A stretch of 64,000 nt of DNA from Alphaproteobacteria bacterium UBA830 (GCA_002295635.1 DBHK01000027.1:5920-69919), one strand, 5' to 3'. Shown: positions 1 through 42,403, counted from the stretch's first letter. Numbers and translations are program-made. Notes: a model not told the origin generated them from the letters alone.

Positions 1-1699
1 CTTTTGAAAATAGTTGGGGATCGGCCAGTATGCTACGGTGAGTGTCAATTTGTGACTGTAATTCATCAATTTTCCCGGGTAGGTTTTCGAGTTCATGCTT
101 GTCCTTGAAGGTCAGTTTTTTGGCCGTTGACGCTGTGGGATTTAGGCAGGTCGATGCCACTGGCTTAATTTTTTTTCGTGGCGATTCACTATCAGGTTTC
201 TCAGCTGTTAGATCACTACCCCGCTGGCTTAGCATGTCGCTGTAGCCACCAGCATATTCCGTCCATTTCCCGTTTCCTTCTCCGGCGATGATCGACGTGA
301 CTACCCGGTCAAGAAAATCACGGTCATGGCTCACTAGTAAAACTGTACCTGTATACTCTGCTAGAAGTTCCTGAAGCAGGTCCAAGGTTTCGAGATCAAG
401 GTCGTTGGTCGGTTCATCCAGGACCAGTAGGTTGGACGGTCTGGCAAAGGCCCGGGCCAACATAATTCGACCGCGTTCTCCACCTGATAGAACGGAAACC
501 GGTGACCGCGCCTGGTTTGGCGTGAAAAGAAAATCCTTCATATAACCGATTACGTGGCGCGATTGACCATTAATGGTAACCTTGTCGCCACCCCCGGTCA
601 TCGCATATGCCAATGTGTCAGTCGGGTTGAGTTTTTTTCGTTGCTGATCGAGATTTTCGATTTCGAGGTTCTTACCCAGTCGAATATTCCCTGCATCCGG
701 CTCCAGCTCACCCGTTAGAAGTTTTAGTAACGTAGTCTTTCCTGCTCCATTAGGGCCAACTATTCCAACCCGGTCGCCTCGGGCTATCAGTGTAGAAAAG
801 CGGTCAACAATGACTCGGTCACCGAAAGATTTAGAGACTTCTTTAGCTTGGCCAACCCGTTTCCCCGAAATCTCTGCTTCTGATACAACCATGTTGCCAA
901 CACCAGTCGGGCCATGATCGCTGCGGCGTTTGGTGCGCAGGTCGATTAGCGCGCGCAGGCGTCCCATATTTCGCTTCCGCCTTGCCGTAACGCCCTTATG
1001 CAGCCAATCGGTTTCAGCCGCGATCTTTCGGTCAAGTTTATGTCGTTCTAGCGCTTCGCTTTCGAGAAATTTTTCGCGCCAGGATTCGAAATCTCTAAAC
1101 CCCCTATCAATCCGGTGTGTCCGGCCCTGATTGATCCATAACGTGGAGTTGGAGAGTTTTTCGAGGAACCGTCTATCATGGCTGATTAGGACTAATGCGG
1201 ATCGGATTCTTGAAAGTTCCTCTTCTAACCATTCAATGACTGGCAGATCTAGATGGTTGGTTGGTTCATCCAGAAGCAGTATATCGGGTTGCGGTGCAAG
1301 CGCGCGCGCCAGTGCTGCCCGACGCACTTCGCCGCCTGACAGGTTGGCGGTGTTGGCAGAGCGCAAAAGCCCGAGCCGGTCGACCAACATATTTGCGCGA
1401 TTCGGATCGTCACCACCTTCTAATCCGCTACGAACATAATCGGCGATGGTCTCGAAACCGGATGGGTCTGGTTCCTGCGGCAGGTAACGCAGGGTTGCAC
1501 CTGGCTGAACGAATCGTTCTCCATCGTCTGCCTCTATCTCGCCGGTGGCTATTTTCAGTAGCGTCGACTTACCCGAGCCGTTTCGTCCGACCAGGCACAG
1601 CCGTTCCCCGTCTGAGATGGATAATTCCGCGCCCTCAAGCAGCGGTGTTCCGCCGAAAGTTAGGTGAATATCGCGTAGTAGTAGAAGCGGTGGCGCCAA
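1..1699 (-). CDS. ABC-F family ATPase (Uup/EttA-like, two ABC domains plus C-terminal coiled-coil); C-terminus runs off the window start
   Basis: The minus-strand translation has two Walker A motifs (GRNGSGKST and GPNGAGKTT) and two ABC signatures (LSGGEVRR and LSGGERGRI). It also has a linker and a coiled-coil tail. The open frame contains no ATG or GTG; the only usable start is TTG at 1697-1699, just after an in-frame TAA. The gene is absent from the ORF track because it is truncated by the window edge. Confidence 0.85.
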   Translation of the reverse strand, partial: MAPPLLLLRDIHLTFGGTPLLEGAELSISDGERLCLVGRNGSGKSTLLKIATGEIEADDGERFVQPGATLRYLPQEPDPSGFETIADYVRSGLEGGDDPNRANMLVDRLGLLRSANTANLSGGEVRRAALARALAPQPDILLLDEPTNHLDLPVIEWLEEELSRIRSALVLISHDRRFLEKLSNSTLWINQGRTHRIDRGFRDFESWREKFLESEALERHKLDRKIAAETDWLHKGVTARRKRNMGRLRALIDLRTKRRSDHGPTGVGNMVVSEAEISGKRVGQAKEVSKSFGDRVIVDRFSTLIARGDRVGIVGPNGAGKTTLLKLLTGELEPDAGNIRLGKNLEIENLDQQRKKLNPTDTLAYAMTGGGDKVTINGQSRHVIGYMKDFLFTPNQARSPVSVLSGGERGRIMLARAFARPSNLLVLDEPTNDLDLETLDLLQELLAEYTGTVLLVSHDRDFLDRVVTSIIAGEGNGKWTEYAGGYSDMLSQRGSDLTAEKPDSESPRKKIKPVASTCLNPTASTAKKLTFKDKHELENLPGKIDELQSQIDTHRSILADPQLFSK

Positions 1700-6748: not shown

Positions 6749-7462
6749 TTACGAATTCTTAGTAGCGCGACGGCACCAGACTTCCCAAGCCCGATCAAGA
6801 CTAATCGGCGCCTGCTGCATACTCGTACACTCCTCGATTTCGATATCCGTAAGGAAGTCAGGCTCGCCAATCATCATGGTTTGAAGTTGTAGTTTAGCGT
6901 TTACCTGCAGATAAATTGCCTTCATCACTGTCTCTTCTACAGTGGCTCCCGTCACGACACAGCCGTGGCGTTTCATCAATGCGATCATACCGCTTCCTAG
7001 TGAAGCCGCCAGGTCTCGGCCCTGTTCCATGGTTACGACAAGATGGTTGGTTTCACCGAATTTATCGCGCATATCCCATACCGGGATGTTCTTTCCGATG
7101 GGGGCGCAAGTGTGTGTGACCGGGCGGAGCGGCGTGCCAGTTGAGGCAAAGGGGATCACTTCGTACGAATGATTATGAATTACCACGTTTACATCTGGCC
7201 GCTGCTCATAAATTGCCCCATGGATCATTCGCTCGCTATAAGGCCGTCGGTCGCCGGCATCGATGGCTTCGCCGTCTAGCCGATAAGTGACTATATCGTC
7301 TGTCTCTATTAGTTCCGGCGCCCGGGCACGCGACAGGAGATATTTCTCCCGATCGCCGGGGTGTCGAAAGCTAATGTGGCCGTATGCGTCAACTACTTCT
7401 TCGTGCGCAAGTATGTGATTGGCGACGACGATATTGTTTAACGTTCCGGCGTCTACATTCAT
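6749..7462 (-). CDS. Class II aldolase/adducin-family protein
   Basis: Start at MNVDAGTLNN. HNHS motif and overall fuculose-phosphate-aldolase-like layout. Confidence 0.8.
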   Translation of the reverse strand: MNVDAGTLNNIVVANHILAHEEVVDAYGHISFRHPGDREKYLLSRARAPELIETDDIVTYRLDGEAIDAGDRRPYSERMIHGAIYEQRPDVNVVIHNHSYEVIPFASTGTPLRPVTHTCAPIGKNIPVWDMRDKFGETNHLVVTMEQGRDLAASLGSGMIALMKRHGCVVTGATVEETVMKAIYLQVNAKLQLQTMMIGEPDFLTDIEIEECTSMQQAPISLDRAWEVWCRRATKNS

Positions 7463-7542
7463 GCGTTGTCCTTTGTTCACACTTGGGCCTTTATGGCCAA
7501 GAAGAGAAATTACAGCGATCGAAATCCCGGTATGGCCCAATA

Positions 7543-7581: not shown

Positions 7582-8049
7582 TCAGCGGGATTCGTAGAAA
7601 TTGATAAGTTTGACCACGTCTTCAGCCTGCATACGACCCAATGGGCCGTCACAGTAGCTAGATGCGATAACATTGTTATCAGGGCCGAGTATAAATTCGG
7701 ACGGCTGGATGATCTGACGGCGGTCCTCCCACCAAGATCCCAAAGCGTCCGCCATATCACGACTTACACCTTCGCCAACAGGGAAGTTAACTTCGTCAGC
7801 GACCTGACTCGATTCTTCTCCCGTGTCGATACTTGCTGCGACGACAGATACACCAATCTTATCTAGTTCTGCCTTTTGGTCTGAAAAGCCGACTAACTGT
7901 CGGCGACAGTAGGGTCACCAATGACCCCGGTAAAATAGAATAACCTTATATTTTGTATCGAGGCCTCTTGGAAGGTCCATCGAACCACCCCCGACAAGAC
8001 CGAGCGTCATGTCGGGGAATGCGTCGCCTATACCAAGTTTATCGGGCAT
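7582..8049 (-). CDS. Peroxiredoxin-like (AhpC/TSA/redoxin thioredoxin-fold) SELENOPROTEIN; in-frame UGA (7915-7917) decoded as Sec in a GHW-U-PYC redox motif
   Basis: AAGGAGG lies 5 nt upstream of the ATG at 8047-8049. The translation is MPDKLGIGDAFPDMTLGLVGGGSMDLPRGLDTKYKVILFYRGHW[U]PYCRRQLVGFSDQKAELDKIGVSVVAASIDTGEESSQVADEVNFPVGEGVSRDMADALGSWWEDRRQIIQPSEFILGPDNNVIASSYCDGPLGRMQAEDVVKLINFYESR, ending at the stop at 7582-7584. The UGA sits at the position of the N-terminal Cys of the W-C-P-x-C motif in Cys homologues. A hairpin follows 10 nt downstream. Confidence 0.8.
7888..7904 (-). promoter_or_regulatory. Candidate bacterial SECIS hairpin for the peroxiredoxin-like selenoprotein
   Basis: GCCGAC-AGUUA-GUCGGC (6-bp stem, G/U-containing loop) starts 10 nt 3' of the UGA. 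The palindrome CUGUCGCCGACAG overlaps it. Confidence 0.5.
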
Positions 8050-8175: not shown

Positions 8176-9315
8176 TTACTCAGCTGCCGAGTTTATCCCA
8201 ATACTGTCCAGTATCTCCTTCTGCCGGCCAAATTCATCAATACCAATTTCTTTTCGAAGATCGGCACTCATCTCCGCTTTGTCGGCTTCCAATGGCGCAC
8301 CTGTAGCATCGGCCACACGATCGATGGCGTTGAAAAGAGCGGCTACGCCCGCAGAGTCAACTACTGCGTCGGGACCAAGGGCCTTAAGGATTTCCTGCCG
8401 GGCATTGGTAAGGCGAGGCCTATCTTCGCCGAGGATGGCCTCGGCGAATTCAATCATAAGTTCGCCGTATTCAATTCCGGTATTTCCCGCATCGGCGCCG
8501 CCGGTGATGGCATTATAGTCGAGATTGTTTCCAGAGTATTCGCTGCCCGCACGGAGCAGTACCGAGTGGCTAGTCGTTCAATAAGTACATTGATTGAGCG
8601 CCGATACTCGCGCTGCCAGCAATTCGATCTGCAGATGTGTGATTGCGCGAAACTCCTGAGTAAAATCTCGCATCTCGGGGCCGCTTAGATACTGCGCTGC
8701 GACCACGTCAAAGAACCCACGCGCCTCATCAGGTACTAAGGTAAGGGCTCGACGAATATTAGACTCCGGCCCTACAAAGTAATCTGCCTCATTCGGGCCA
8801 TATTCGTCCCAAGCTATGTTAGGTGACCACGCTTGGTGCTGACGTGCCTCAGCCGGGCGATAGTACGAAGGTTCACCGCTCTGGGCTTCTGGCAAAGCGC
8901 GGACTGGCACACCGATCCCATTAGCGAAGGTATCGATCGCGGTAGTATGAGCCACTATGCTGACGATTTCGACGAAGTGCGTTTCCAGAATACCGCTATC
9001 GATGGTTTTCTTGTACCACGTTTGTGTCAAACGACCTGGGTCCGCAACGATCAGATGGATCATATTTACCCAATTTTGGGGTAGGTCAGTCCCGGAATCG
9101 AAGGGTTCGGTAATAGAAAATGGTGATAGTGCTTCCCTGATTTTTGCGTAGCCGGGACAGTCCCGAGCGTGGCGCGCCTCCGCCATCACTTTGAGACGCT
9201 CCTCGCCTGTTAGCCAATTTCCCGCTTTAGATAATCTATCCCAAGCGCGTTGATGGGCTTCGACAATGTCTTCTCGAACGGAATAAGGCGAGTCATCGTA
9301 ATTGATGTTTGACAT
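8176..9315 (-). CDS. AhpD-like / carboxymuconolactone-decarboxylase-family SELENOPROTEIN; UGA at 8578-8580 read as Sec joins ORFs 8578..9315 and 8176..8457
   Basis: The upstream ORF ends ...RVSALNQCTY-TGA. Downstream the same frame is open with no stop for 134 codons, through the track ORF 8176..8457. The motif spanning the UGA is C-T-Y-U-T-T-S-H, which matches the AhpD catalytic C-x-x-C-x-x-x-H exactly. The downstream part carries the CMD C-terminal helix AALFNAIDRVADATG. Confidence 0.65.
8543..8559 (-). promoter_or_regulatory. Possible SECIS-like hairpin for the AhpD-like selenoprotein
   Basis: CUGCUC-CGUGC-GGGCAG (6-bp stem including one G-U pair, GU-containing loop) starts 18 nt 3' of the UGA. 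Confidence 0.3.
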
Positions 9316-9386: not shown

Positions 9387-10382
9387 CTATAGCCCGAATA
9401 ACGCACTTGGGTTTTTCTCGACGATAATTTCTATATCTCTATTACTGAAGCCTGCATCGCGCAGGGTCTTCATCGGATGTGGGTCGCCGGGTGGGAAGGG
9501 GAGGTCGCTACCGAGGAGGATGCGGTCTAAACCCACTAAATCACCTAGATAGTTAAGCGCTCGTCCATCATGCAAGATGGTGTCGTAGTGGAAATGCTTC
9601 AGGTATTGAGAAGGTGGTTTAATCGCTACATTGCCGGTGATCCGTCCGTCTGACGCATGATGCATGCGATCAAAACGGCCGATAAGAAATGGTATTGAGC
9701 CGCCCCCATGTGACAGGATAATTTCTAGTTCTGGAAAACGATCTAATACGCCTGCGGCTATCATTGAGCCAACGGTAAGTGTCGTATCATTGGTGTATGC
9801 GACAATTTGATTAAGGGCAAATTTCCCTGCTCGCGCAGGTGCGATTGGCTGGGCAGGGTGGATAAAAACCGGAGCCTTAAGCTCGACGCAAGTAGCCCAA
9901 TATTCATCAAGTTCGCACTCGCCTAAGTTTTTTCCATCAACATGGGCTGCGATAATCGCACCGACCGCGCCGGCTTTAATACCGCGTTCTAACTCGCGTG
10001 AGGCTGCGGCTGCATCCTGTAGCGCGCCGGAAGCCAGCCAAGAGAAATGGTCTGGATAAGTATTGCAAAGCCGTGTCATGCTATCATTTAACGCGGCGTG
10101 CCAGAGTATGCCCTTTTCGGCAGGTAAATCGTATCCAAAGATGTCTGTCCAGATACTGAGTATCTCACGATCTACGCCCTGTAGGTCCATTTCTTCGAGC
10201 CGGTGATCTGCGTTCGTCAGAGTATCGAAGAAAGGACGGACCTGCATACCACTTTCGAAACGACAACAATGGCACCCGGGTTCTGTCTCAAGCAGATCAA
10301 TACCGAAGTCTTTTCCTCGGGCGGAGAGCGTCTCTATCACGTCCGGGGGGACTAAGTGCGCGTGTACGTCAATTACGTTCAT
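9387..10382 (-). CDS. Amidohydrolase_2 (ACMSD/LigW-like metal-dependent hydrolase/decarboxylase)
   Basis: Start at MNVIDVHAHLVPP (HxH metal motif), 20 bp after the stop of the molybdenum hydroxylase large subunit. Confidence 0.8.
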   Translation of the reverse strand: MNVIDVHAHLVPPDVIETLSARGKDFGIDLLETEPGCHCCRFESGMQVRPFFDTLTNADHRLEEMDLQGVDREILSIWTDIFGYDLPAEKGILWHAALNDSMTRLCNTYPDHFSWLASGALQDAAAASRELERGIKAGAVGAIIAAHVDGKNLGECELDEYWATCVELKAPVFIHPAQPIAPARAGKFALNQIVAYTNDTTLTVGSMIAAGVLDRFPELEIILSHGGGSIPFLIGRFDRMHHASDGRITGNVAIKPPSQYLKHFHYDTILHDGRALNYLGDLVGLDRILLGSDLPFPPGDPHPMKTLRDAGFSNRDIEIIVEKNPSALFGL

Positions 10383-10401
10383 GATCGGACGTCTCCTAGT
10401 T

Positions 10402-12690
10402 TCAATTTCCGTTATCCCGCAATGCATTGCGGAGTCGATCAGGTGTAATAGGCAACTCTTTTATGGAGATACCGTGCGGACGAAGCGCCCGGGAAACCGC
10501 ATTGCTAACGGCGGCGGCAACGGCGACGATCCCGCCTTCACCTGCTCCCTTGAACCCCATCGGATTGAACTCTGATGGTGAATCCTCTAGCGCGATAGCT
10601 GTGATCTCCGGTAATTCAGACGTGGTTGGCAATAGGTAGTCTGCAAAGCTACCGGTCAGAAGCTGACCGTCAGTGTCATAGATAAAATGATCGAGGAACG
10701 TACCACCCAAGCCCTGGACTACGCCGCCAACCGCCTGACCCTGCACCAAAGCGGGATTGAGTGCCCGTCCAATCTCTTCAGTTAGCCAGTACCGTTCGAC
10801 CTCAACGACACCGGTTTCAATATCTACCGCGACCTGTGCCGCATGGGCGCCGTATGAATATGAGATACGTTTTTCATTATCAAAAATAGCATCGGCGGCC
10901 AGGGTTTCGCCCCGGTGTTCCGAGAAAGACGCTAGTTCCTGCAAGCTCAGTCTTTCGTTATATCTATACACTGCACCATCGCTATAACGCAGGTTTTCCG
11001 GGTCGCAGTTCCAGCGCAGCGCTGCAATGCCTACAGCATGGTCTTTCAGTAAATCGGCAGCGATACGCGTTGCATTGCCGGCCATTACAGTATTACGGCT
11101 GTGGAAAGTGCCACCGCCTGTTTTCACCAGCGTCGTGCTGCCGTGGAGAACCTGAACACGGGCGATATCAATATCTAGGTAATCAGCGCAAATCTGTGCA
11201 AGCCCTGTCTCGGTTCCCTGACCAACTGATGAAGCACCGGTACGAATGGTCACTGTGCCGTCTGACGTTGCGGTTATGTTTGCTGACTCCGGTGGTCCGG
11301 CGGCACTACTTTCGATAAAACATGCAATACCGAGGGCGCGAGCCCGACCATCCGAGTCTGGGACGTTGGTGGGCCAGTCCGTGTATCGGCATTCCTTCAA
11401 AAGCCGGTCTAGAGCAGCAGGATAATCGCCCTTATCCAACGTTGCCTCAGTGTCTCCCGGAACGAGCTCACCTATTTTGTATGGCAGATCCGCCGGGGTC
11501 ATCAGATTGCGTCGGCGCAGTTCTGCTGGATCGAGGTCTAGATCATCCGCCATCAGGTCTAAGAGACGTTCGCGGCAGAAATTAGCTTCAAAGCGACCCG
11601 GACCGCGGAATGTGCCCACTGGGGTTTTGTTGGTGATCAAAAACTGCACATCGCAGCTAAAAGAAGGTACCCGATATGGGCCTGGAAGAAACTGTGCGGC
11701 CTTCGACGGTACTACACCGCCATTGGTTCGAACATAGGCTCCCATGTCGCCCCGAACTGTTCCCCGCATACCGAGGATTTCGCCTGTCGCCGTCGCGGCT
11801 ATTTCAAGATCGCAGATGATATCGCGCGAATGGTTGGTTGCGGTCAGGTTTTCTCGCCGATCCTCGATCCATTTTACTGGACGTTCTGTACGCCTACTTG
11901 CAAGAGGAACCAGATAGTCCTCCGGATACAGTTCGCCGCGAGCACCGAAGCCGCCGCCTACATCCGTCTCGATTAGCTCGACGGAACTTTCAGGCATGTC
12001 AAACGCTTCTGCCAGATGCCGGCGATTGAAGAAATTAACCTTTGTGGCACCATGCAATCGTAATAAGGGTTTAGAGATATCGAATTCCGCGATCAGGCCG
12101 CGTGTCTCCATCGGTACGGCGCCGTGACGGTTGGTGATGAAGCGTTCATGCCGGGTATAGGCAGCCCCGTCGAACGCCTCTTTGGTGTTGCCGCGGCTAA
12201 CGGTGTAACGGGTTCCCATATTTTCGCCCGCTGCTTCGTGGATCAATATTTGTCCATCGAAAGCTTGATCAACGGTGGTCACAGCTGACAGCGGGTCAAA
12301 CTCGATCTCGATCAGTTCTAGAGCATCTTCTGCAACATAGCGGTCCTCAGCAATTACGACGGCAATTGGCTCACCTACATATCGCACTTTGTTGACCGCA
12401 ATCGGACATTGCAGAAATCTCTCGAAGCCGTCAAATGGAGCTAGCCTAAGAGGAATAGTCGGCAAATCATTCTCCATATCCGCAGCGCAGAATACGTCGA
12501 TTACCCCTTCAAGCGCACGCGCCGTATCGAGATTGATAGTCTTTATAAGAGCGTGAGCATGGGGACTGCGTAACACTGCCATAATTGCCATACCAGGCAG
12601 TTTGACGTCGTCAATATAGATACCCTCTCCAGTTAGTAAGCGTTGATCTTCCAGCCGCGAAACGGACTTTCCTATATATCTCCGGCTCAA
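10402..12690 (-). CDS. Xanthine dehydrogenase-family molybdopterin-binding large subunit (CoxL/CutL homologue, not a bona fide CO dehydrogenase)
   Basis: 762 aa. N-terminal a/b hammerhead and molybdopterin-binding domains. The active-site loop reads GTFRGPGRFEANF rather than the CoxL form I/II signatures. Confidence 0.85.
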   Translation of the reverse strand: MSRRYIGKSVSRLEDQRLLTGEGIYIDDVKLPGMAIMAVLRSPHAHALIKTINLDTARALEGVIDVFCAADMENDLPTIPLRLAPFDGFERFLQCPIAVNKVRYVGEPIAVVIAEDRYVAEDALELIEIEFDPLSAVTTVDQAFDGQILIHEAAGENMGTRYTVSRGNTKEAFDGAAYTRHERFITNRHGAVPMETRGLIAEFDISKPLLRLHGATKVNFFNRRHLAEAFDMPESSVELIETDVGGGFGARGELYPEDYLVPLASRRTERPVKWIEDRRENLTATNHSRDIICDLEIAATATGEILGMRGTVRGDMGAYVRTNGGVVPSKAAQFLPGPYRVPSFSCDVQFLITNKTPVGTFRGPGRFEANFCRERLLDLMADDLDLDPAELRRRNLMTPADLPYKIGELVPGDTEATLDKGDYPAALDRLLKECRYTDWPTNVPDSDGRARALGIACFIESSAAGPPESANITATSDGTVTIRTGASSVGQGTETGLAQICADYLDIDIARVQVLHGSTTLVKTGGGTFHSRNTVMAGNATRIAADLLKDHAVGIAALRWNCDPENLRYSDGAVYRYNERLSLQELASFSEHRGETLAADAIFDNEKRISYSYGAHAAQVAVDIETGVVEVERYWLTEEIGRALNPALVQGQAVGGVVQGLGGTFLDHFIYDTDGQLLTGSFADYLLPTTSELPEITAIALEDSPSEFNPMGFKGAGEGGIVAVAAAVSNAVSRALRPHGISIKELPITPDRLRNALRDNGN

Positions 12691-13175
12691 ATTGATACCC
12701 CGCCGCTGCGGCGTGCCGCCGCGTCCATAATTGCGTCAACAATTGATACGTACCCCGTACATCGGCAAATATTCCCAGAAATCGCACTTTCGACTTCGGC
12801 ACGGGTTGGTGTCGGGTTCTCGCCTAGGAAAGCTTCCGCAGTCGTTAACATCCCTGGAGTGCAGAAACCGCACTGCAGCGCATGGTTGTCGCGAAACGCC
12901 TCTTGAAGTGGAGACAGGTTCTCACCTTCGGCGAGACCTTCTACTGTTGTGATATCCATTTTGTGGGCTTGGACCGCAAAAATCAGACAAGACCGTATTG
13001 CCGCTCCATCAGCTATTACGGTGCAGGCGCCACACACGCCGTGTTCGCATCCCAGGTGTGTGCCCGTAAGATCTAGTTGTTCGCGCAGGCAATCGGCCAG
13101 TGACATGCGGGCGTCGACATCGCAGCTATACGAGGTGCCGTTTACTTTTAGAGATATGGCATGGCGGTTTGTCAC
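12687..13175 (-). CDS. (2Fe-2S)-binding small subunit of the molybdenum hydroxylase
   Basis: 162 aa. CEHGVCGACTV and CGFCTPGM cluster motifs. 4-bp overlap with the large subunit. Confidence 0.9.
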   Translation of the reverse strand: MTNRHAISLKVNGTSYSCDVDARMSLADCLREQLDLTGTHLGCEHGVCGACTVIADGAAIRSCLIFAVQAHKMDITTVEGLAEGENLSPLQEAFRDNHALQCGFCTPGMLTTAEAFLGENPTPTRAEVESAISGNICRCTGYVSIVDAIMDAAARRSGGVSI

Positions 13176-14041
13176 AGATTACGTTTCCAGGCTTCAGAGA
13201 GAGTTCGCTTTAGGAGGACTGCGGAAACTTCGCGCCGATATGCGATAGAGGCATGGATATCGTCGAATGGATCAATATCGGCATCAATGGTATCTGCGGA
13301 TTCTTTGAATAGGCCGAGGGAGGGTTCAGATCCCATTAGGGTGTTTTCCGCTCTGTGAAGACGAAGCGGTGTATCACCTGCCCCTATTGCTACGCATGCG
13401 CAGTTGGATATGGCGCCGCCGTCATTGATGTCAAACCAAGCTGCGACGCCCACTAGGGCAAAGTCGCCTTCCCGGCGGGAGATTTCTTTGAATCCCCAGT
13501 GACGTTGTGTCGGCCAGGGTGGAAAACAGATTTTTTCGATCAACTCACTACTGTCAGCGGCTGTCGTAAAAACGCCTTGAAAAAAGTCGACTGCAGGAAC
13601 AACCCGAGGGCCGGCCGGTCCGCGTAGGTGAATTTTTGCTTCACAAACTAAAGTAATTCCCGGCAATTCGGCTGCTGGATCCGCGTGAGCGACACTGCCA
13701 CCCAATGTGCCTCGGTTTCGGATTTGGAAATGAGCAATATGGGCTGCGGCTGCGGCCAGCAAGGGATTGTTCTTTTCGATGTCAGGATCTGTTTCAAGCC
13801 GGCGGGTACGTACCATGGGGCCGATTTCTAGGCCGCCATCTGGGCTTATCCGGATATCTGCGAGCTCGGAAACACCGTTAAGGTCAATAAGCGCGGACGG
13901 TGAAGCGACACGAAAGTTCATCATCGGTACGAGGCTTTGTCCGCCCGCAAGATATCGGGCGTCCTCACCATTCTCCCGCATCATAGCGATTGCGCCATCG
14001 ACACTATCTGCAGCAAAGTAGTTGAACTTAGATGGTTTCAT
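13172..14041 (-). CDS. FAD-binding medium subunit of the molybdenum hydroxylase (CoxM-like)
   Basis: 289 aa. FAD-binding region (YLAGGQSLVPMMNFRVASP). 4-bp overlap with the small subunit. Confidence 0.85.
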   Translation of the reverse strand: MKPSKFNYFAADSVDGAIAMMRENGEDARYLAGGQSLVPMMNFRVASPSALIDLNGVSELADIRISPDGGLEIGPMVRTRRLETDPDIEKNNPLLAAAAAHIAHFQIRNRGTLGGSVAHADPAAELPGITLVCEAKIHLRGPAGPRVVPAVDFFQGVFTTAADSSELIEKICFPPWPTQRHWGFKEISRREGDFALVGVAAWFDINDGGAISNCACVAIGAGDTPLRLHRAENTLMGSEPSLGLFKESADTIDADIDPFDDIHASIAYRREVSAVLLKRTLSEAWKRNL

Positions 14042-17332: not shown

Positions 17333-17428
17333 TGGCGGAAAAGAGTGGGAGTCGAACCCACCAGGGACGTCTAACGCCCCTCACCGGTTTTGAAGACCGG
17401 GCGCCCCACCGGGGAACGAATCTCTTCC
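17333..17428 (-). tRNA. selC: tRNA-Sec (anticodon UCA)
   Basis: 96 nt: GGAAGAGAUUCGUUCCCCGGUGGGGCGCCCGGUCUUCAAAACCGGUGAGGGGCGUUAGACGUCCCUGGUGGGUUCGACUCCCACUCUUUUCCGCCA. It has an 8-bp acceptor stem, a UCA anticodon in a CUUCAAA loop, a long variable arm and a GGUUCGACUCC T-arm. Its architecture is near-identical to E. coli selC. Confidence 0.85.
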
Positions 17429-17533
17429 GACGGTATACATGCATAGCAAATTCCTATGTTGGGTGACATGCCTATTGTACCAAATTCATTTTCTTCTAAA
17501 GAAACGACTTTTACCAATCTCTGAAGTTTGGCT

Positions 17534-19459
17534 TCAGTCTTTGTTGAAAGCCTCCTCTGCAGGACGGATTATCTCATGCCCGTCGCCTACGCGGCGGGTG
17601 AATTTGACCTTGTCAAAGAATTCTAAAACCTCGATAGATAGGTTCCGGCCTATTCCCGACGCGTCGCGAAAATTTGCTGCGGTCACCATGCCTTCGTCTG
17701 CGGATGCTGCCACTTTTTCCGCGATCTCGCCTAGCTGGCGCAGGGCATCTGGCTGATAAAATCGGTTTTTTGCTATTCGAATAACGAGACCGTGACGTCC
17801 TGCTCGAACCAGCAGAGACTCGATTTTACTAGGCTCTTTGTCGATTGCTTGCGCGATCTCAACAATAACTGGCGGTCGCAGTCCCCCATTGACTAGAAGC
17901 GGTTTTATTTTATTCCAATTCGAGGCGTCGGCCCCTTGCAGTTTTGGCTTATGCGACAGTAGCCGCACGCCCATACCTTCTTTGACTATGACACCTTCAC
18001 GCACCAGCTCAGCACAAATAGAAGCCGTCGCGTTGCCGGGTAGACGAAGACCTGTGCCCACCAGGATACGGTTCTCGCCAGGTCCAACCGTGTCGGGAGA
18101 TTTTTTATGCCAGGCGCCAAGAGCCTCTAAAACCGCGGTACGGAGGATGTCCCAGCGGTTATGGGAGAAACCTAGCAAGCCTTTCTCGGTTGATATCGAT
18201 TTAATTGGAACAAGCTCTTGTAGAGCCTCCATGTCGGAGTCGGTTAGATTGCGTGCTGAAGCGAAGCGGTCGAGGAAGAGACCTTCGGGTGAGGTTTCCA
18301 GCAAGGCAGTCAGTGCGATACCATCGTCTCCCTCCTCCATCGCTTTTAAGAAAGCTATACGCTCAGGTCTGGCCCGTCCTCGCGCAGGTGGGTAGACGTC
18401 TATGACGCGGCCGCCACCTATCGTTCGTTGCGCAGACTGATCACGAATTATTAACCCGTCACTATGAACCGCGGCCATAGGATGATCGAGTACAAGTTGC
18501 GCGAGCTTATTTTCGCCCGCCGCTATACTTTGCTCTCCAAGAATAGCGACCCGTCCGGTGGACTCTGATGCGCCGAGATGGACATGAACCGGGGTCCAGT
18601 GAGCAAGCGGCCGAGCTTCTGACTGAAGAACCTGAAGCCTTACATCTATTTTTCTTACTGCCGGAGGCGGATGGCCGGTAACGATCCAGTCGCCGCGCTG
18701 TATCAGCCGACTGTCGAGATCCGGCCCTGTAAGATTTAGCGCACAGCGTTGACCTGCGTGTCCGGCGTCGGTTTTTGCATTTTGCGCATGAAGGCCGCGC
18801 ACTCTAACGTCGATCTCTGCACCCAAGACCCGGGCGCCTGCGCCGGTTTTCAGATGACCGGAAAAGGCGGTGCCAGTAACCACAAGCCCTGCGCCGGTAA
18901 CCGCAAAGCATCGGTCGATGGCGAGCCGGAAATTTCCTGTCGACGCGCGTGGTGGCATCTGGGCTGCTGCATCGATGAGGTGTTGTTTTAAATCACTGAT
19001 CCCTTCGCCAGTTAGTCCAGATAGCGGGAAAACGGGAGCTCCATCTAGCGATGTACCGAGTAAAAGCTCGTCAATCTGCTCGGATACCTCGACGGCGCGC
19101 ATATCATCAACCCGGTCGATTTTGGTTAGGGCTACCGCGCCATCTGAAACGCCGAGCAAGTCGAGGATTGCTAGGTGTTCTCTGGTTTGCGGCATCGGTC
19201 CGTCGTCAGCGGCGACAGTGAGTAACGCGAAGTCGATACCGACTACGCCACATAACATATTACGAATAAATTTTTCGTGTCCGGGGACGTCTATAAACCC
19301 GATAGTTTCCGCTCCATCTATCGGAAGATAGGCGAAGCCAAGATCGATGGTCAGATTACGTTTCTTTTCTTCAGGCAGCCGATCGGTATCAACCCCGGTC
19401 AACGATTTTATTAGGAGGGTTTTACCGTGATCAACGTGGCCGGCTGTAGCAACAATCAT
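17534..19459 (-). CDS. selB: Selenocysteine-specific translation elongation factor SelB
   Basis: 641 aa. N-terminal MIVATAGHVDHGKTLLIKSLTGVDTDRLPEEKKRNLTIDLGFAY with GTPase G motifs. Long C-terminal winged-helix region. ATGA overlap with selA. Confidence 0.9.
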   Translation of the reverse strand: MIVATAGHVDHGKTLLIKSLTGVDTDRLPEEKKRNLTIDLGFAYLPIDGAETIGFIDVPGHEKFIRNMLCGVVGIDFALLTVAADDGPMPQTREHLAILDLLGVSDGAVALTKIDRVDDMRAVEVSEQIDELLLGTSLDGAPVFPLSGLTGEGISDLKQHLIDAAAQMPPRASTGNFRLAIDRCFAVTGAGLVVTGTAFSGHLKTGAGARVLGAEIDVRVRGLHAQNAKTDAGHAGQRCALNLTGPDLDSRLIQRGDWIVTGHPPPAVRKIDVRLQVLQSEARPLAHWTPVHVHLGASESTGRVAILGEQSIAAGENKLAQLVLDHPMAAVHSDGLIIRDQSAQRTIGGGRVIDVYPPARGRARPERIAFLKAMEEGDDGIALTALLETSPEGLFLDRFASARNLTDSDMEALQELVPIKSISTEKGLLGFSHNRWDILRTAVLEALGAWHKKSPDTVGPGENRILVGTGLRLPGNATASICAELVREGVIVKEGMGVRLLSHKPKLQGADASNWNKIKPLLVNGGLRPPVIVEIAQAIDKEPSKIESLLVRAGRHGLVIRIAKNRFYQPDALRQLGEIAEKVAASADEGMVTAANFRDASGIGRNLSIEVLEFFDKVKFTRRVGDGHEIIRPAEEAFNKD

Positions 19460-20859
19460 TCGAGAATTTCAAGAGTTGAAAGTTGTGAAAGGAATCCGGG
19501 TTCATCTGCCATACAGCGTAGATCAACGATGAAGGCACCTCCCTGAACGCGTCCAATAACTGGCACTGGCAGACCGCGAAAGGCCCGTACGAGTCGTTCA
19601 ACTGCCGCACCGTTCTTAGTTTCAGGAGTGATTGCGAGGCCCGCGCTAGGAAGTTTGCGGGTCGGTAATGTACCCGAACCGACTTGGCTGTCGCAGTCCA
19701 CCTCTTCGACTTTGGCAAACCCTTTTACGGCTCTAGAGATTGCAGGCCGAATCCGGGAGGCTGTTTCCTGAATATCAGTCACTGACCGGGTAAGCGCACG
19801 CAGCGTGGGCAATCGGTCGGATAGACTATCTGGATCGGAATAAAGACGAAGCACGGCGGATAACGCTGCGATAGTCATTTTGTCACAGCGTAGTGCTCGT
19901 TTTATGGGGTTGCTCTTTAAACGAGTGATGCAGTCTTTGGTACCAACGATGATACCTGCCTGCGGTCCACCCAATAGCTTGTCACCCGAAAATGATACCA
20001 TATCGGCACCGTGCTTTAGGGCTTCCATTGGAGTTGGTTCATGTGGAAGTCCAAGCCGCTTTAGTTCCGTCAGAGTGCCGCTGCCCAGATCGATGGCAAA
20101 TGGAATTCCAGTCTCATGACACAGCTTGGCGAGATCAGTTTCCGGCACCTCCGCGGTGAATCCTTCTACTACATAGTTACTGGTATGGACCTTCATGATC
20201 ATTCCGGTATTCGGTCCGATAGCTGCGGCATAATCCTTTAAATGGGTCCGGTTGGTGGTGCCAACCTCGACCAGTTCACATCCTGACTGTGCCATAATAT
20301 CCGGCATACGGAACGAACCCCCGATCTCTATTAACTCTCCTCGAGATGTAGGTGTTTCCTTACCAAGTGCGAAGGTATTGAGGATCAACATAACTGCCGC
20401 GGCATTATTATTGACGACGGTTGCCGCCTCAGCACCGGTGATTTCACAAAGCTGTGCCTCGACATGGTCATCCCGGTCTCCGCGCTTTCCTTCTTCCAAA
20501 CTATACTCGAGGTTGGTTGCGCTGCGCGCCGCCCGGGAGATGGCTTCAATAGCTTCCTCCGGAAGCGCCGCGCGACCCAAGTTCGTATGAATGACCGTTC
20601 CTGTTAGATTATAGACTGGTCGGAGAGACGGCAAATTCTCCTGCGCCAGACACTCCGCCACTGCATACAATATCTCTGTTTCGTGCGGTATCTTGTTACC
20701 GGAAAGCACAGAACCGCGAATTTCTTCTAGCGTCTTTCGGATGCAATCCGTTACTAATTTGCGGCCATATTCCGAAATCAGCTTCACGGCATTATCCGAA
20801 TTCAACAGGCGATCAACAGACGACAGGCCCGCAAGAGGCGAAGAGGTTTTCTTTGGCAT
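19456..20859 (-). CDS. selA: L-seryl-tRNA(Sec) selenium transferase SelA
   Basis: PLP-dependent. LAGLSSVDRLLNSDNAVKLISEYGRKLVTD aligns with the E. coli SelA N-terminus. Start placed at MPKKTSS. An alternative upstream start at 20937 would abut the prfC stop. Confidence 0.85.
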   Translation of the reverse strand: MPKKTSSPLAGLSSVDRLLNSDNAVKLISEYGRKLVTDCIRKTLEEIRGSVLSGNKIPHETEILYAVAECLAQENLPSLRPVYNLTGTVIHTNLGRAALPEEAIEAISRAARSATNLEYSLEEGKRGDRDDHVEAQLCEITGAEAATVVNNNAAAVMLILNTFALGKETPTSRGELIEIGGSFRMPDIMAQSGCELVEVGTTNRTHLKDYAAAIGPNTGMIMKVHTSNYVVEGFTAEVPETDLAKLCHETGIPFAIDLGSGTLTELKRLGLPHEPTPMEALKHGADMVSFSGDKLLGGPQAGIIVGTKDCITRLKSNPIKRALRCDKMTIAALSAVLRLYSDPDSLSDRLPTLRALTRSVTDIQETASRIRPAISRAVKGFAKVEEVDCDSQVGSGTLPTRKLPSAGLAITPETKNGAAVERLVRAFRGLPVPVIGRVQGGAFIVDLRCMADEPGFLSQLSTLEILE

Positions 20860-20938
20860 GACCGTGAGACAATACTGCTTGAAACGGTGTTGGGAAATGT
20901 CTTGTTGAAACGTGGTAGCAGGGAGAATACCAAACACC

Positions 20939-22543
20939 CTATTGTGTCTGTTCCTTGGTCTTCAGAAATTTGATGTCAGGCCACTCTTTCACAGCGTTGT
21001 CTAAATGCCACGTGTTTCGGGCGAGGAAAACCGGCATTGAGTCATGATCATCTGCGATGGAACTGCCATTGTTATCTAGGAATTTTTTCAGAAGACTGGT
21101 ATCGTTTGCTTCAACCCAGCGCGCAGTATGGAGAGAGGTTGCCTCAAACTTTACCGGTACATCGTATTCCGAACGTATACGGTCTGCCATAACATCAAAT
21201 TGAAGCGCTCCTAAGACACCGACGATCCAGTCCGTTCCGATGCGTGGCTTAAATACCCGGGCCACGCCTTCTTCTGCCAATTGTTGTAGCGCTCGGCCAA
21301 GATGTTTGGCACGCATCGGATCCGCCGGATGTACCGAGCGCAGTATTTCAGGTGCGAAGCTTGGGATGCCTGTGAAGCGCAATTCTTCACCATCTGTCAA
21401 AGCATCACCGATCCGCAGATTTCCATGATTTGGGATGCCAATGATGTCACCTGCATATGCATCTTCAGCGGTCTCCCGATCCTGCGCGAGGAATAACATC
21501 GGGTTGTGCAAATTTATTTGTTTACCACTTCGAATATGACGCAGCTTCATGCCTCTCTTGAAATGTCCCGATGATAGTCGAAAGAATGCAATTCGGTCGC
21601 GATGCTTTGGATCCATGTTCGCCTGAATCTTGAATACGAAACCACTGACTTTGTTTTCCTCAGGGTCGACGACACGCTCTTTTGCATTTTGTGGACGTGG
21701 GGGTGGTGCGAGGGACACAAGACCTTTCAGCAATTCTCGGACACCAAAATTATTAATAGCACTGCCGAAGAATACTGGGCTGAGCGAGCCGTCACGATAG
21801 GACTGTAAATCGAGTGGTGGGCAAAGGCCGGTCGCCATCGGTACCTCTTCGCGAAGCTTTTCTACTGCATGACCGGGTAATAGAGCGTCGAGTTTTGGAT
21901 CGTCGACGCCCTCACATATAATATCCTCACCAGGATCATTCGAGATCTTGCCGCTAGCGTGACCTTTTTTCATCAGCACCACCCTGCCGTCAATCACGTC
22001 GTAACAGCCGAGAAAATCCCGTCCCATACCGATCGGCCAGCTTGCAGGCGTTACATCAAGGGCGAGTGTTTCCTCGATTTCTTGTAACAGTTCGAATGGT
22101 TCCTGTGCCTCTCGATCCATCTTATTAATAAAGGTGATGATCGGCATATCCCTCAAGCGACAGACTTCGAACAGTTTCCGAGTCTGTGCTTCGATCCCAC
22201 GTGCTGCATCTATCACCATTACTGCCGAGTCGACAGCTGAAAGTGTCCGGTATGTATCTTCCGAAAAGTCTTCGTGACCAGGTGTATCCAGTAGGTTGAA
22301 GGTGCAGCCGCCAAATTCATATGTCATAACAGATGATGCTACCGAGATGCCCCTTTCTGCCTCGACTTTCATCCAGTCGGAATGTGCGCGCCTAGCCTCG
22401 CCCCGCGCCTTAACGGCACCGGCAGTCTGAATTGCTCCACCGAACAACAAAAGTTTCTCGGTCAGAGTCGTTTTACCCGCATCCGGGTGGGAGATAATGG
22501 CGAATGTTCGCCGGGCGGCAATTTCGCCGCTGTTTATGCCCAT
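20939..22543 (-). CDS. prfC: Peptide chain release factor 3 (RF3)
   Basis: RRTFAIISHPDAGKTTLTEKLLLFGGAIQTAG ... FKIQANMDPKHRDRIAFFR, closely matching E. coli RF3. Start trimmed to MGINSGEIAARR. Confidence 0.9.
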   Translation of the reverse strand: MGINSGEIAARRTFAIISHPDAGKTTLTEKLLLFGGAIQTAGAVKARGEARRAHSDWMKVEAERGISVASSVMTYEFGGCTFNLLDTPGHEDFSEDTYRTLSAVDSAVMVIDAARGIEAQTRKLFEVCRLRDMPIITFINKMDREAQEPFELLQEIEETLALDVTPASWPIGMGRDFLGCYDVIDGRVVLMKKGHASGKISNDPGEDIICEGVDDPKLDALLPGHAVEKLREEVPMATGLCPPLDLQSYRDGSLSPVFFGSAINNFGVRELLKGLVSLAPPPRPQNAKERVVDPEENKVSGFVFKIQANMDPKHRDRIAFFRLSSGHFKRGMKLRHIRSGKQINLHNPMLFLAQDRETAEDAYAGDIIGIPNHGNLRIGDALTDGEELRFTGIPSFAPEILRSVHPADPMRAKHLGRALQQLAEEGVARVFKPRIGTDWIVGVLGALQFDVMADRIRSEYDVPVKFEATSLHTARWVEANDTSLLKKFLDNNGSSIADDHDSMPVFLARNTWHLDNAVKEWPDIKFLKTKEQTQ

Positions 22544-22698
22544 TGATGAGTCCAAAAAACTTTTTAGCACTATCCGCGCCGACTCGATGCAATATAAGGC
22601 TGTTTTATCGTAATTCCAGTACAGCTTGCCTGTCGCCATGCTAATCTCTGGCGTTTAGGATAGGTGGGAAGGATGGCAAAAATAGGGAGGGCGGGTCG

Positions 22699-32503: not shown

Positions 32504-32640
32504 GATTACCGTCCCGTTCTATGAATATTTCTACACGTTTTATCAGCTTGAAATTCACTTGGCGATATTAAGAACTAATCAAGTGTGACTTAATCTCCAT
32601 ATCAATGGTATCCATTAGAAAAACTCGAGAGATAAATTCT

Positions 32641-33750
32641 ATGCAAACATCTATTCCCGCGATTCTCATGCGCGGGGGCACGTCGCGCGGCCTGTATTTT
32701 AACCGCACTGATTTACCAGACGATCAAAGTCTGTGGGACGATATTTTGCTGAAGGCATTCGGTTCGCCCGATCCGCGACAAGTAGACGGGGTTGGCGGCA
32801 CGACGTCTGTCACAAGTAAAAGTTGTATCTTGTCTCTATCAGACCGCGAAGATTGTGATATCGACTATTTCTTTGCCCAGCTTTCAGTTGAAGAGGCAAA
32901 AGTAGATTATACCCCGTCTTGCGGAAATATGCTAGCGGGCGTCGGGCCTTATGCCATCGAGACGGGAATGATTACTGCTCAGGTTGGTGAGACCCGGGTA
33001 CGTATTCACCAGGTCAATACGGGCGGTTTAGTAGAGGCCGTAGTTCCTACGCCGGCTGGGCAGGTCGAGTACGAAGGTGAGGTTGCGATTGATGGTGTGC
33101 CAGGGGTAGCAGCACCCATTCTTCTTAATTTCATGAATGTTGTGGGGGCTCGGACAGGACAGTTATTCCCGACTGGAAAGAAAATAGAAACCATCGACGA
33201 CGTTGAAGCGACTATTATCGATGCGGCTATGCCTTGCCTGATCATGCGTGCTTCCGATGTTGGAAAAACTGGCTACGAGTCCGCCGCGGAACTCGACGCC
33301 GACACCTCGTTCTTCGAATTCATCGAGGACAAGCGGATTAAAGCAGGCCGCCGGATGGGCCTGGGTGATGTGACGGGACAGGTTCAACCCAAGATAATTA
33401 TTCTCTCCCCACCGCGCGACGGCGGCGCTATCACCTCACGATATTTTGTACCCGACAAAACACACCAAACCCACGCGATTACTGGCGGCATCGCAGTGGC
33501 TTATGCGTCGATCACCCCCGGTACGATCGCCGAACCTATGGTCAATATGTCTCCAGATAAACCCGGTCCGCATTTTTCAATTGAACATCCGGCGGGTCAG
33601 TTACATCTGTCACTGACACTGAAGCGAACCGATGAAGGCGTCAAACTGGAGGCAGCGGGTATCGTCCGCACGGCTCGTTTGATCATGCAGGGGTCTGTGA
33701 TGGTTCCTAAGAGGCTACTTTCCCCCAATACTTCGGAAGATAAGGGATAA
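32641..33750 (+). CDS. PrpF/AcnD-accessory (methylaconitate isomerase-like) family protein
   Basis: Start at MQTSIPAILMRGGTSRG, the canonical PrpF N-terminus. About 370 aa. Confidence 0.8.
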   Translation: MQTSIPAILMRGGTSRGLYFNRTDLPDDQSLWDDILLKAFGSPDPRQVDGVGGTTSVTSKSCILSLSDREDCDIDYFFAQLSVEEAKVDYTPSCGNMLAGVGPYAIETGMITAQVGETRVRIHQVNTGGLVEAVVPTPAGQVEYEGEVAIDGVPGVAAPILLNFMNVVGARTGQLFPTGKKIETIDDVEATIIDAAMPCLIMRASDVGKTGYESAAELDADTSFFEFIEDKRIKAGRRMGLGDVTGQVQPKIIILSPPRDGGAITSRYFVPDKTHQTHAITGGIAVAYASITPGTIAEPMVNMSPDKPGPHFSIEHPAGQLHLSLTLKRTDEGVKLEAAGIVRTARLIMQGSVMVPKRLLSPNTSEDKG

Positions 33751-36628: not shown

Positions 36629-37858
36629 TTATTTGATAGCTTCTTCCTTTCGGACACTATCGAGTAGGGAAGACCGCATGAGCCAAGCCTTGGCTTTAAC
36701 TGGGTCTTCCGCGGCAGCCCGTAGCTGTATTTGGTTGGAGCGGATGGCTTCTGGGTCTTTTTCCTCGATGCGTTTTTTGTTTTCAATAGTCACGCTTTGA
36801 AGAAACTCGGTAGCTAGCTGATGCCGCTGACGATGGTAGCGTTCGAAAATATCGTCGTTTGCGCGTCCGAACCACACGTCTCCTATTTTTTTTGTAATAT
36901 TCATGCAGTCGTGGATGCCGGTATTCAGGCCAAGACCGCCGAGCGGGTTATTCAGATGCGCCGCGTCGCCGGCCAGGAAGATGCGTTCAACCCGGAATCT
37001 GTCGGCCACTCTTTGGTTTACCGTGTAAAGATTGCGATGCAGGATGTCATTGTAATCCATGTCTTCTCGTAGTCCGCGAATACGCTTAGTGACACCATTA
37101 TCAGAGAGCAGGTCTTCATCCTCTTCGTGTCCCTCCGTCGGGAACAGCGTTCGCCATATTCCCTCGTCTTCGTCGCCCGGAACTTTAAAAACAGCAAACC
37201 ACTCATCTGGATCCATAACGTAATTTCTATGTAGGTATCCATCACTTGTAGCGAAATCATGTTCCGAGGTCAGAACTAGGAAACGTTCGTCCCATGTGAA
37301 CCCTGACATGAACACACCCAATCCAATACGGATGGTGGACCGGCCACCATCGCAGGCCAAAAGGTAACGGCCTTCGACCTTTTGTATGTCGCTCTCTGGG
37401 TCCTTGTAGATGACAGTGACGCCGTCGTAGTCTTGAGAAAATGCGATTACTTCCGACCCTAAGCGCACGTCAGCGATATCATGGGTCTTTACCGCTACTA
37501 GCGCGTCGCGGGTCAGCTTCCACTGTTCATACTGAATCGCGAAAGGGAAATCGGTTTCGTCACTGATGTGTTTCATATCAAAAACTGCGATGATTTCTTG
37601 AGAATTGCGGTCACGAAACTGGAAGGCAGGTGCCATTAAACCCCGACTTTTAAGTCCATCAGCAAGATCCAGGGAGTCGAGCATTTCTAGCGTTGACGCG
37701 TGAATCGTTGCGGCTCGAGGGTCCCGGGGGGGCTCTTTGAAAGCCTCTAACACAGTTACGGGAACGCCTTGGCGGACGAGGGAAAGGGCCGCAACCATAC
37801 CGACCGGCCCACCACCGCAAATGATCACACGTTCATTCTTGCTCATACTATGCAACAT
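36629..37858 (-). CDS. FAD-dependent aromatic-ring monooxygenase (PHBH-like, PF01494 type)
   Basis: VIICGGGPVGMVAALSL GxGxxG motif, internal DG fingerprint (LLACDGGRS) and C-terminal GD motif (FLAGDAAH). Confidence 0.85.
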   Translation of the reverse strand: MLHSMSKNERVIICGGGPVGMVAALSLVRQGVPVTVLEAFKEPPRDPRAATIHASTLEMLDSLDLADGLKSRGLMAPAFQFRDRNSQEIIAVFDMKHISDETDFPFAIQYEQWKLTRDALVAVKTHDIADVRLGSEVIAFSQDYDGVTVIYKDPESDIQKVEGRYLLACDGGRSTIRIGLGVFMSGFTWDERFLVLTSEHDFATSDGYLHRNYVMDPDEWFAVFKVPGDEDEGIWRTLFPTEGHEEDEDLLSDNGVTKRIRGLREDMDYNDILHRNLYTVNQRVADRFRVERIFLAGDAAHLNNPLGGLGLNTGIHDCMNITKKIGDVWFGRANDDIFERYHRQRHQLATEFLQSVTIENKKRIEEKDPEAIRSNQIQLRAAAEDPVKAKAWLMRSSLLDSVRKEEAIK

Positions 37859-37910
37859 AACGAACCGGCCGTGTCATTAATAGGAAATGGTTCTTACGCT
37901 TGAGAAGATT

Positions 37911-41041: not shown

Positions 41042-41204
41042 TACGACAACTCATTTTTCAAAATAAGCTAACTATAATAGTCTAAAAAATAAGTTTTTTG
41101 GCTAAATTTTATTGGCACAGCGGAAATAGTACCCATTGAAGAGGTTTCGCTCTTCGAACAGCACGCTATAATTATTAGTAACCAAACAGAAATGGGGAAC
41201 GGCA

Positions 41205-42377: not shown

Positions 42378-42403
42378 AGGCATTATACCCGGCAGGAGAA
42401 CCC

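Follow-up and report, generated by a model that had tools for sequence, protein, structure and literature searches.

We analysed a stretch of 64,000 nucleotides (nt) from Alphaproteobacteria bacterium UBA830 (GCA_002295635.1 DBHK01000027.1:5920-69919), called the window throughout, with regard to a minus-strand reading frame at 9315..8176 that is interrupted by a single TGA. The frame runs from an ATG at 9315, with a GGAG Shine-Dalgarno-like motif upstream of it, to a TAA at 8178..8176, and comprises 380 codons for a 379-residue product. It is open except at codon 246, a TGA at 8580..8578, and past this codon it stays open for 133 further codons. An open reading frame (ORF) lister splits the gene into 8578..9315 (245 amino acids, aa) and 8176..8457 (93 aa); the public gene calls for the same DNA are split identically, with both parts described as 'hypothetical proteins'. 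An earlier interpretation made from the DNA alone (the sequence-only reading) had correctly pointed out that the first ORF, on the minus strand, ends in ...NQCTY followed by an in-frame TGA, that the second lies in the same frame and that no stop separates them, and had proposed that the TGA encodes selenocysteine (Sec). The data presented here indicate that 9315..8176 is very probably one gene, the 379-residue product of which is a selenoprotein of the NF041238 family with Sec at an active-site UGA. The main elements of the locus are as follows.

8176..9315, minus strand: probable complete AhpD-related selenoprotein gene, 379 aa (open frame, NF041238 match, conservation of full-length orthologues)
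8578..8580, minus strand: UGA codon 246, predicted to be read as selenocysteine (TGA in 29/29 sequences, Cys in six full-length homologues)
8566..8625, minus strand: active-site segment with E231 (8625..8623), C243 (8589..8587), Y245, U246 and H250 (8568..8566) (invariant in alignments, aligns with 6k40)
8543..8559, minus strand: selenocysteine insertion sequence (SECIS)-like hairpin with a 6-bp stem and a 5-nt loop (consensus fold, pair counts, covariation, fixed codons)

Profile searches were done with Cys put in place of the UGA in the 379-aa product. The NCBIfam equivalog model NF041238 (AhpD_rel_CFYUT, 'alkylhydroperoxidase-related (seleno)protein') matched with 437.1 bits (E=5e-131, cutoff 175), in one stretch across the TGA that extends over aa 13-363 of the product and positions 1-356 of the 357 in the model. 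The active-site motif of this family, C-x-Y-U/C-T, is present as C-T-Y-U-T, in the local context ...ALNQ-C243-T-Y-[UGA]-T-T-S-H250-SVLLRAGS... Generic models for AhpD and the carboxymuconolactone decarboxylase (CMD) family match only around the UGA, and all of them fall under their cutoffs (TIGR01926, for example, with 37.8 versus 81.8 bits). The expectation in the sequence-only reading that a hidden Markov model (HMM) would show a single domain across the UGA was thus borne out by NF041238 and not by the generic CMD and AhpD models. Because the Pfam CMD model is below threshold, the relationship to AhpD and CMD proteins is set by the NCBIfam model together with a PDB sequence search and a fold comparison.

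The PDB search identified D. radiodurans AhpD (6k40, E=1e-7) over query aa 224-339, again across the UGA, with LNRCVYCAVSH of 6k40 aligned over LNQCTY[U]TTSH; it was followed by three more structures described as 'peroxidase-related / antioxidant defence'. Only about 22 residues of the 6k40-aligned stretch precede the UGA, so that the domain cannot be complete before the 'stop', as had been argued in the sequence-only reading. For the fold comparison, a structure model was built for the Cys homologue P0012, which aligns to the window protein without gaps (predicted local distance difference test 91.9, predicted template modelling score 0.91). The highest value was obtained for Sestrin-2 (17.0, 229 residues aligned), followed by the debrominase Bmp8 (12.8), the peroxidase-related protein 2pfx (12.7), the CMD-family proteins 3lvy (11.9), 2q0t (11.6) and 2gmy (10.9), M. 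tuberculosis AhpD 1gu9 (8.6) and the 4-carboxymuconolactone decarboxylase 4g9q (7.9). As judged from this model, the C-terminal half of the protein has the all-helical AhpD/CMD fold, and residue 246 is located near the start of a helix (244-260).

In M. tuberculosis AhpD, the proton relay consists of Glu118, Cys130, His132, Cys133 and His137, and in P. aeruginosa PA0269 the position of His132 is occupied by Tyr (PMC3141380). E231, C243, Y245, U246 and H250 of the window protein have a spacing identical to that of the AhpD relay (Glu-x11-Cys-x-x-Cys-x3-His), and all five residues are invariant in the alignments. The spacing C-T-Y-U-T-T-S-H given in the sequence-only reading therefore holds, and the segment aligns with CVYCAVSH of a solved AhpD. 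In that reading, the Sec was said to replace the resolving Cys; this part has to be revised, since it is the second Cys, Cys133, that cross-links to AhpC Cys61 in the M. tuberculosis enzyme, while Cys130 is partly buried (PMC6626918). With Cys133 as the attacking residue, the Sec at U246 would take the place of the attacking Cys and not of the resolving one. This also agrees with a general pattern of selenoproteins, in which Sec takes the place of the catalytic residue.

Homologues were collected in three ways. Among 5.8 billion proteins searched, 807 relatives of the window protein were found. Almost all of the 120 listed have a length of about 245 aa, which means that they are cut at the same place as the window ORF. 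One listed relative is 100% identical ('hypothetical protein CFH41_00294' of Alphaproteobacteria bacterium MarineAlpha11_Bin1). P0012 (384 aa) is a full-length homologue with Cys instead of Sec; it reads NQCHYCTTRH and is 54% identical to the window protein over 371 residues, with zero gaps. In a second search, 1.84 billion cluster representatives were queried with just the 133 residues that follow the UGA. Most matches were fragments of 95-155 aa that start about 7 residues past the UGA and are the orphaned second halves of Sec forms, but this search also recovered full-length Cys forms (P0203 CHYCS, P0215 CFYCT, P0263 CFYCC, P0267 CVYCA, P0176 CAYCA). Together with P0012 (CHYCT), six full-length homologues thus have a Cys at the Sec position.

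Finally, a scan of GTDB with one genome per species gave 35 loci, of which 28 were usable as orthologues (protein identity about 40% to 89%), so that 29 sequences including the window could be compared. The aligned codon is TGA in all 29 sequences and TAA or TAG in none. The true terminators of the same genes are more varied (TAA in 13, TGA in 12, TAG in 3, and one cut by the contig end), and the conservation of the internal TGA is far beyond chance. The motif in the 28 orthologous loci is C-[TLHF]-Y-U-T. The frame past the UGA is open for about 120-140 codons in every usable locus and contains the conserved blocks UTTSH, LLRAS, GDTG, LIEFAEAVL and VD-AGVAGLFNAIDRVADATG-PLE. Pairwise differences at the three codon positions were 0.27/0.23/0.56 downstream of the UGA and 0.26/0.20/0.57 upstream of it, and the 40 'intergenic' codons (8458..8577) gave 0.28/0.23/0.48; both sides of the UGA have the same coding signature. 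The sequence-only reading is supported by these results, since none of the outcomes that it had named beforehand as contrary (orthologues ending here in TAA or TAG, no codon-level conservation between the two ORFs, a domain complete before the stop) was found. Locus L020 (CAZOHS010000250.1), which was left out of the counts, has extra in-frame TAA stops in both gene halves (positions 2..988) and represents either a decaying copy or a low-quality assembly.

The hairpin with a CGUGC loop that had been noticed 18 nt 3' of the UGA is present and shows covariation. It begins 18 nt after the UGA and is composed of CUGCUC (8559..8554), the loop CGUGC (8553..8549) and GGGCAG (8548..8543). In an ungapped alignment of 63 nt from the UGA onward, columns 24-31, 33 and 35 are invariant, even though the proteins are down to about 40% identical, and the RNAalifold consensus is exactly the 6-bp stem with its 5-nt loop. 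Pair 22-38 occurs as CG (21), GC (5) and AU (1), and pair 23-37 as UA (18), UG (10) and GC (1). Covariation was tested for an 8-pair version of the stem, using as controls 500 shuffles and the partner strand slid by 1-3 columns. The fraction of paired cells (85%), the pair types and the covariation score were above those of all 500 shuffles and of every slid control (21-49% paired when slid). Codon usage gives the same picture. Across the 153 columns with a conserved 4- or 6-fold degenerate residue, the commonest codon has a mean share of 0.56, and only 4 of these columns reach at least 0.95, namely the consecutive codons +7 to +10 (CUG-CUC-CGU-GCG), which extend from the 5' arm through the loop to the first base of the 3' arm. 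Such fixation of synonymous sites at the hairpin reflects selection on the RNA, as expected of a bacterial SECIS element. Such an element is taken here to be a stem-loop that closely follows the UGA on its 3' side and carries G/U in its apical loop; the hairpin has both properties.

A second selenoprotein gene lies downstream on the same strand. The sequence-only reading placed the AhpD-related gene directly upstream of a Prx-like selenoprotein gene, which is confirmed, at a distance of 125 bp, which has to be corrected to 126 nt. Its features are as follows.

7582..8049, minus strand: Prx-like (AhpC/TSA-fold) selenoprotein gene with the UxxC motif GHW-U-PYC, UGA at 7917..7915 (Pfam AhpC-TSA)
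7888..7904, minus strand: GCCGAC-AGUUA-GUCGGC, a SECIS-like hairpin that begins 10 nt past the UGA of the Prx-like gene (read from the sequence)

The Prx-like product matches the Pfam AhpC-TSA model (69.7 bits) from aa 7 to 128 in one piece that includes the TGA, and the public gene calls keep only a 44-aa stub of the gene. Of the 28 orthologous loci, 20 have this gene immediately after the AhpD-related gene and on the same strand, including relatives that are down to 57-61% identical. Its TGA is conserved in all 21 sequences (the window and 20 orthologues), the terminators of which are TAA (9), TGA (8) and TAG (4). The hairpin is also kept in the 21 sequences, with one pair varying between A-U, G-U and G-C. 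No terminator-like site was found on the minus strand of the 126-nt spacer, so that co-transcription is possible. By analogy with AhpD and AhpC, a functional link between the two selenoprotein genes is plausible, and a reductant and peroxidase pair of this type is the obvious model for them. We know of no activity for either selenoprotein family.

The window also contains genes for Sec decoding, about 9 kb from the AhpD-related gene.

17333..17428, minus strand: tRNA-Sec with anticodon UCA (ARAGORN; Rfam RF01852, 75.7 bits, gathering score 47)
17534..19459, minus strand: selB, selenocysteine-specific elongation factor (TIGR00475, 425.5 bits, cutoff 242)
19456..20937, minus strand: selA, L-seryl-tRNA(Sec) selenium transferase (TIGR00474, 580.5 bits, cutoff 268)

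Together with prfC, the gene for release factor 3, the selA, selB and tRNA-Sec genes are arranged head to tail on the minus strand (17333..22639). prfC is located just upstream of selA, which starts 2 nt past the end of prfC, and selB and selA overlap by 4 nt. The position of a release factor 3 gene directly upstream of genes for Sec decoding is an intriguing juxtaposition with regard to UGA recoding. In a six-frame scan for in-frame TGA codons, only two convincing genes were found, the AhpD-related and the Prx-like gene; the scan was crude, as it required at least 40 codons on both sides of the TGA, so that a Sec near a terminus would escape it.

The selenoprotein pair lies between genes for a CoxM/S/L-type molybdenum (Mo) hydroxylase (flavin adenine dinucleotide (FAD), 2Fe-2S and molybdenum cofactor subunits), an Amidohydro_2 enzyme and a class II aldolase or 3,4-dihydroxyphthalate-decarboxylase-like protein. 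The neighbours, and catabolic genes further away, are located as follows.

9387..14041 and 6749..7540, minus strand: catabolic neighbours flanking the pair (Mo-hydroxylase, Amidohydro_2, aldolase-like)
32572..33750, plus strand: 4-oxalomesaconate tautomerase (463 bits)
36629..37873, minus strand: FAD aromatic hydroxylase
41172..43600, plus strand: two tandem luciferase-like monooxygenases

In its wider extent, the region resembles a catabolic island for aromatic or gallate/protocatechuate compounds. Only closer relatives retain the positions of the Amidohydro_2 and aldolase-like genes (12 and 9 loci, respectively).

A mechanism can be proposed on the basis of better studied systems. As in other bacteria, SelB with GTP and Sec-tRNA(Sec) would bind the hairpin upon arrival of the ribosome at the UGA, and Sec would be inserted. 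By comparison with the biochemistry of AhpD, U246 would be the attacking selenolate, equivalent to Cys133 of M. tuberculosis AhpD and activated via H250 and E231, and C243 would then resolve the intermediate as a selenenylsulfide. More speculatively, the AhpD-related protein might serve as the reductant of the Prx-like UxxC selenoprotein, in parallel to the AhpD/AhpC pair, and the two might form a module of two selenoproteins that reduces hydroperoxides or disulfides. A function in peroxide detoxification, as suggested in the sequence-only reading, would follow from this analogy. A less likely possibility goes one step further: the AhpD-related (CxxU) and Prx-like (UxxC) proteins could be an obligate, co-inherited redox relay of marine Alphaproteobacteria, and the pair is possibly dedicated to by-products of the adjacent Mo-hydroxylase and aromatic-catabolism genes instead of general oxidative stress. 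If true, selenium would be used in two places, the peroxidatic or acceptor site and the site of recycling. In the literature compared, such a pair is recorded only as a single-read observation, without biochemistry.

Other explanations for the TGA were weighed against the same data. Gene callers annotate the locus as if the TGA were a true stop and the 245-aa and 93-aa ORFs were separate genes, and the second ORF does have an ATG. Nevertheless, two genes are very improbable, because the codon is always TGA and never TAA or TAG, the 40 'intergenic' codons show the conservation of coding sequence, one HMM alignment and one PDB alignment cross the stop, full-length Cys homologues exist, and a stop would cut the AhpD-fold region about 22 residues into the AhpD-aligned stretch. 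Still less probable is a TGA that results from a pseudogene, from an assembly error or from a reassigned code (Trp or Gly). The window comes from a metagenome-assembled genome, where such errors occur, but the same TGA is found in 28 independent genomes, and in 24 contigs from different samples. Reassignment is contradicted by the homologues, which carry Cys at this position and not Trp or Gly; moreover, TGA terminates 12 of 28 of these genes, and also Prx-like genes, which shows that the code is not reassigned. On this evidence, we rejected each of these readings of the TGA.

A genuine selenoprotein that does not detoxify peroxides is more probable than these, although we consider it the less likely alternative to the main interpretation. 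The CxxU site might reduce some other substrate, for example in a reductive dehalogenation like that of the CMD-fold debrominase Bmp8, or the protein might serve the adjacent catabolic genes of the Mo-hydroxylase, amidohydrolase and aldolase-like types. The similarity of the P0012 model to Bmp8 is a reminder that thiol enzymes with a CMD fold do more than reduce peroxides, and the neighbouring genes possibly indicate a role in catabolism and not in stress. On the other hand, no neighbour is conserved as deeply as the Prx-like selenoprotein gene, the catabolic neighbours being retained in close relatives only, and the full set of AhpD proton-relay residues is invariant.

Several observations weigh against the interpretation of 9315..8176 as a single gene for an AhpD-related selenoprotein that acts on peroxides with a Prx-like partner. 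The CMD model PF02627 and the AhpD core model TIGR00778 do not reach their cutoffs (18.9 versus 23 bits and 24.1 versus 27.8, respectively). The Sec at codon 246 is predicted from the nucleotide sequence, and analogy is the basis both for the proposed function and for the putative pairing with the Prx-like protein. An HMM scan of 18 window ORFs and a regular-expression motif search did not find selD, which is presumably located elsewhere in the genome. Folded alone, the window hairpin is of unexceptional stability (z = +0.6 versus shuffles), and it matched no Rfam family, as a scan at gathering thresholds gave only tRNA-Sec and tRNA-Leu; for these two reasons, the evidence for the hairpin is comparative and not thermodynamic. 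Moreover, the neighbouring genes suggest aromatic catabolism no less than oxidative stress.

The finding as such is already known, because the family is a curated selenoprotein family that has been on record since 2005. The Sargasso Sea selenoproteome (Zhang et al. 2005) contained CxxU AhpD-like selenoproteins (27 sequences) and 4 sequences of a 'hypothetical protein 1', in which a CXXU motif is conserved (PMC1088965), and the latter is the NF041238 family (PMC1088965; listed in PMC13188914; for the single-gene selenoprotein reading see also PMC2398784). The family, the position of the Sec, the existence of a SECIS element and the neighbour relationship are all already described. The published record is extended here by the quantification of the pairing (20 of 28 species-level genomes) and by the sharp definition of the family hairpin through its fixed codons CUG-CUC-CGU-GCG. 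Both are modest additions that leave the understanding of selenoproteins unchanged. The main value lies in annotation: the public calls for this genome contain neither selenoprotein gene in one piece, and the same truncation affects hundreds of database entries.

Among known systems, AhpD of M. tuberculosis (1gu9) and D. radiodurans (6k40) has its second Cys where the window protein has Sec. The window protein is twice as long as AhpD, and the partner of AhpD is a typical AhpC, while the neighbour in the window is instead a small UxxC Prx-like protein. The resemblance to Sestrin-2 (5cuf), a eukaryotic, leucine-sensing protein without Sec and with 13% identity, is architectural only. The fold, the CxxU placement of Sec and the marine setting are shared with AhpD-like 1 and AhpD-like 2, the CMD-domain marine selenoproteins (COG2128/TIGR01926, PF02627). 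However, these are single-domain proteins that pass the generic models, whereas the window protein remains below the cutoffs and has an extra N-terminal half of about 220 aa. Contrary to what the sequence-only reading had assumed, it is not a member of the abundant marine family 'AhpD-like 1' and belongs to the separate NF041238 family. With that family it shares the length class (about 360-385 aa), the CxxU followed by T and the marine alphaproteobacterial hosts. The N-terminal half of the family contains a conserved RHAxxCxxC, in which C53 is invariant and C56 at least 90% conserved. The window protein departs from the family pattern in two positions: the name-giving motif C-F-Y-U-T reads C-T-Y-U-T, and the N-terminal CxxC reads C53-P-G-Y56 (9148..9159, minus strand), with its second Cys lost.
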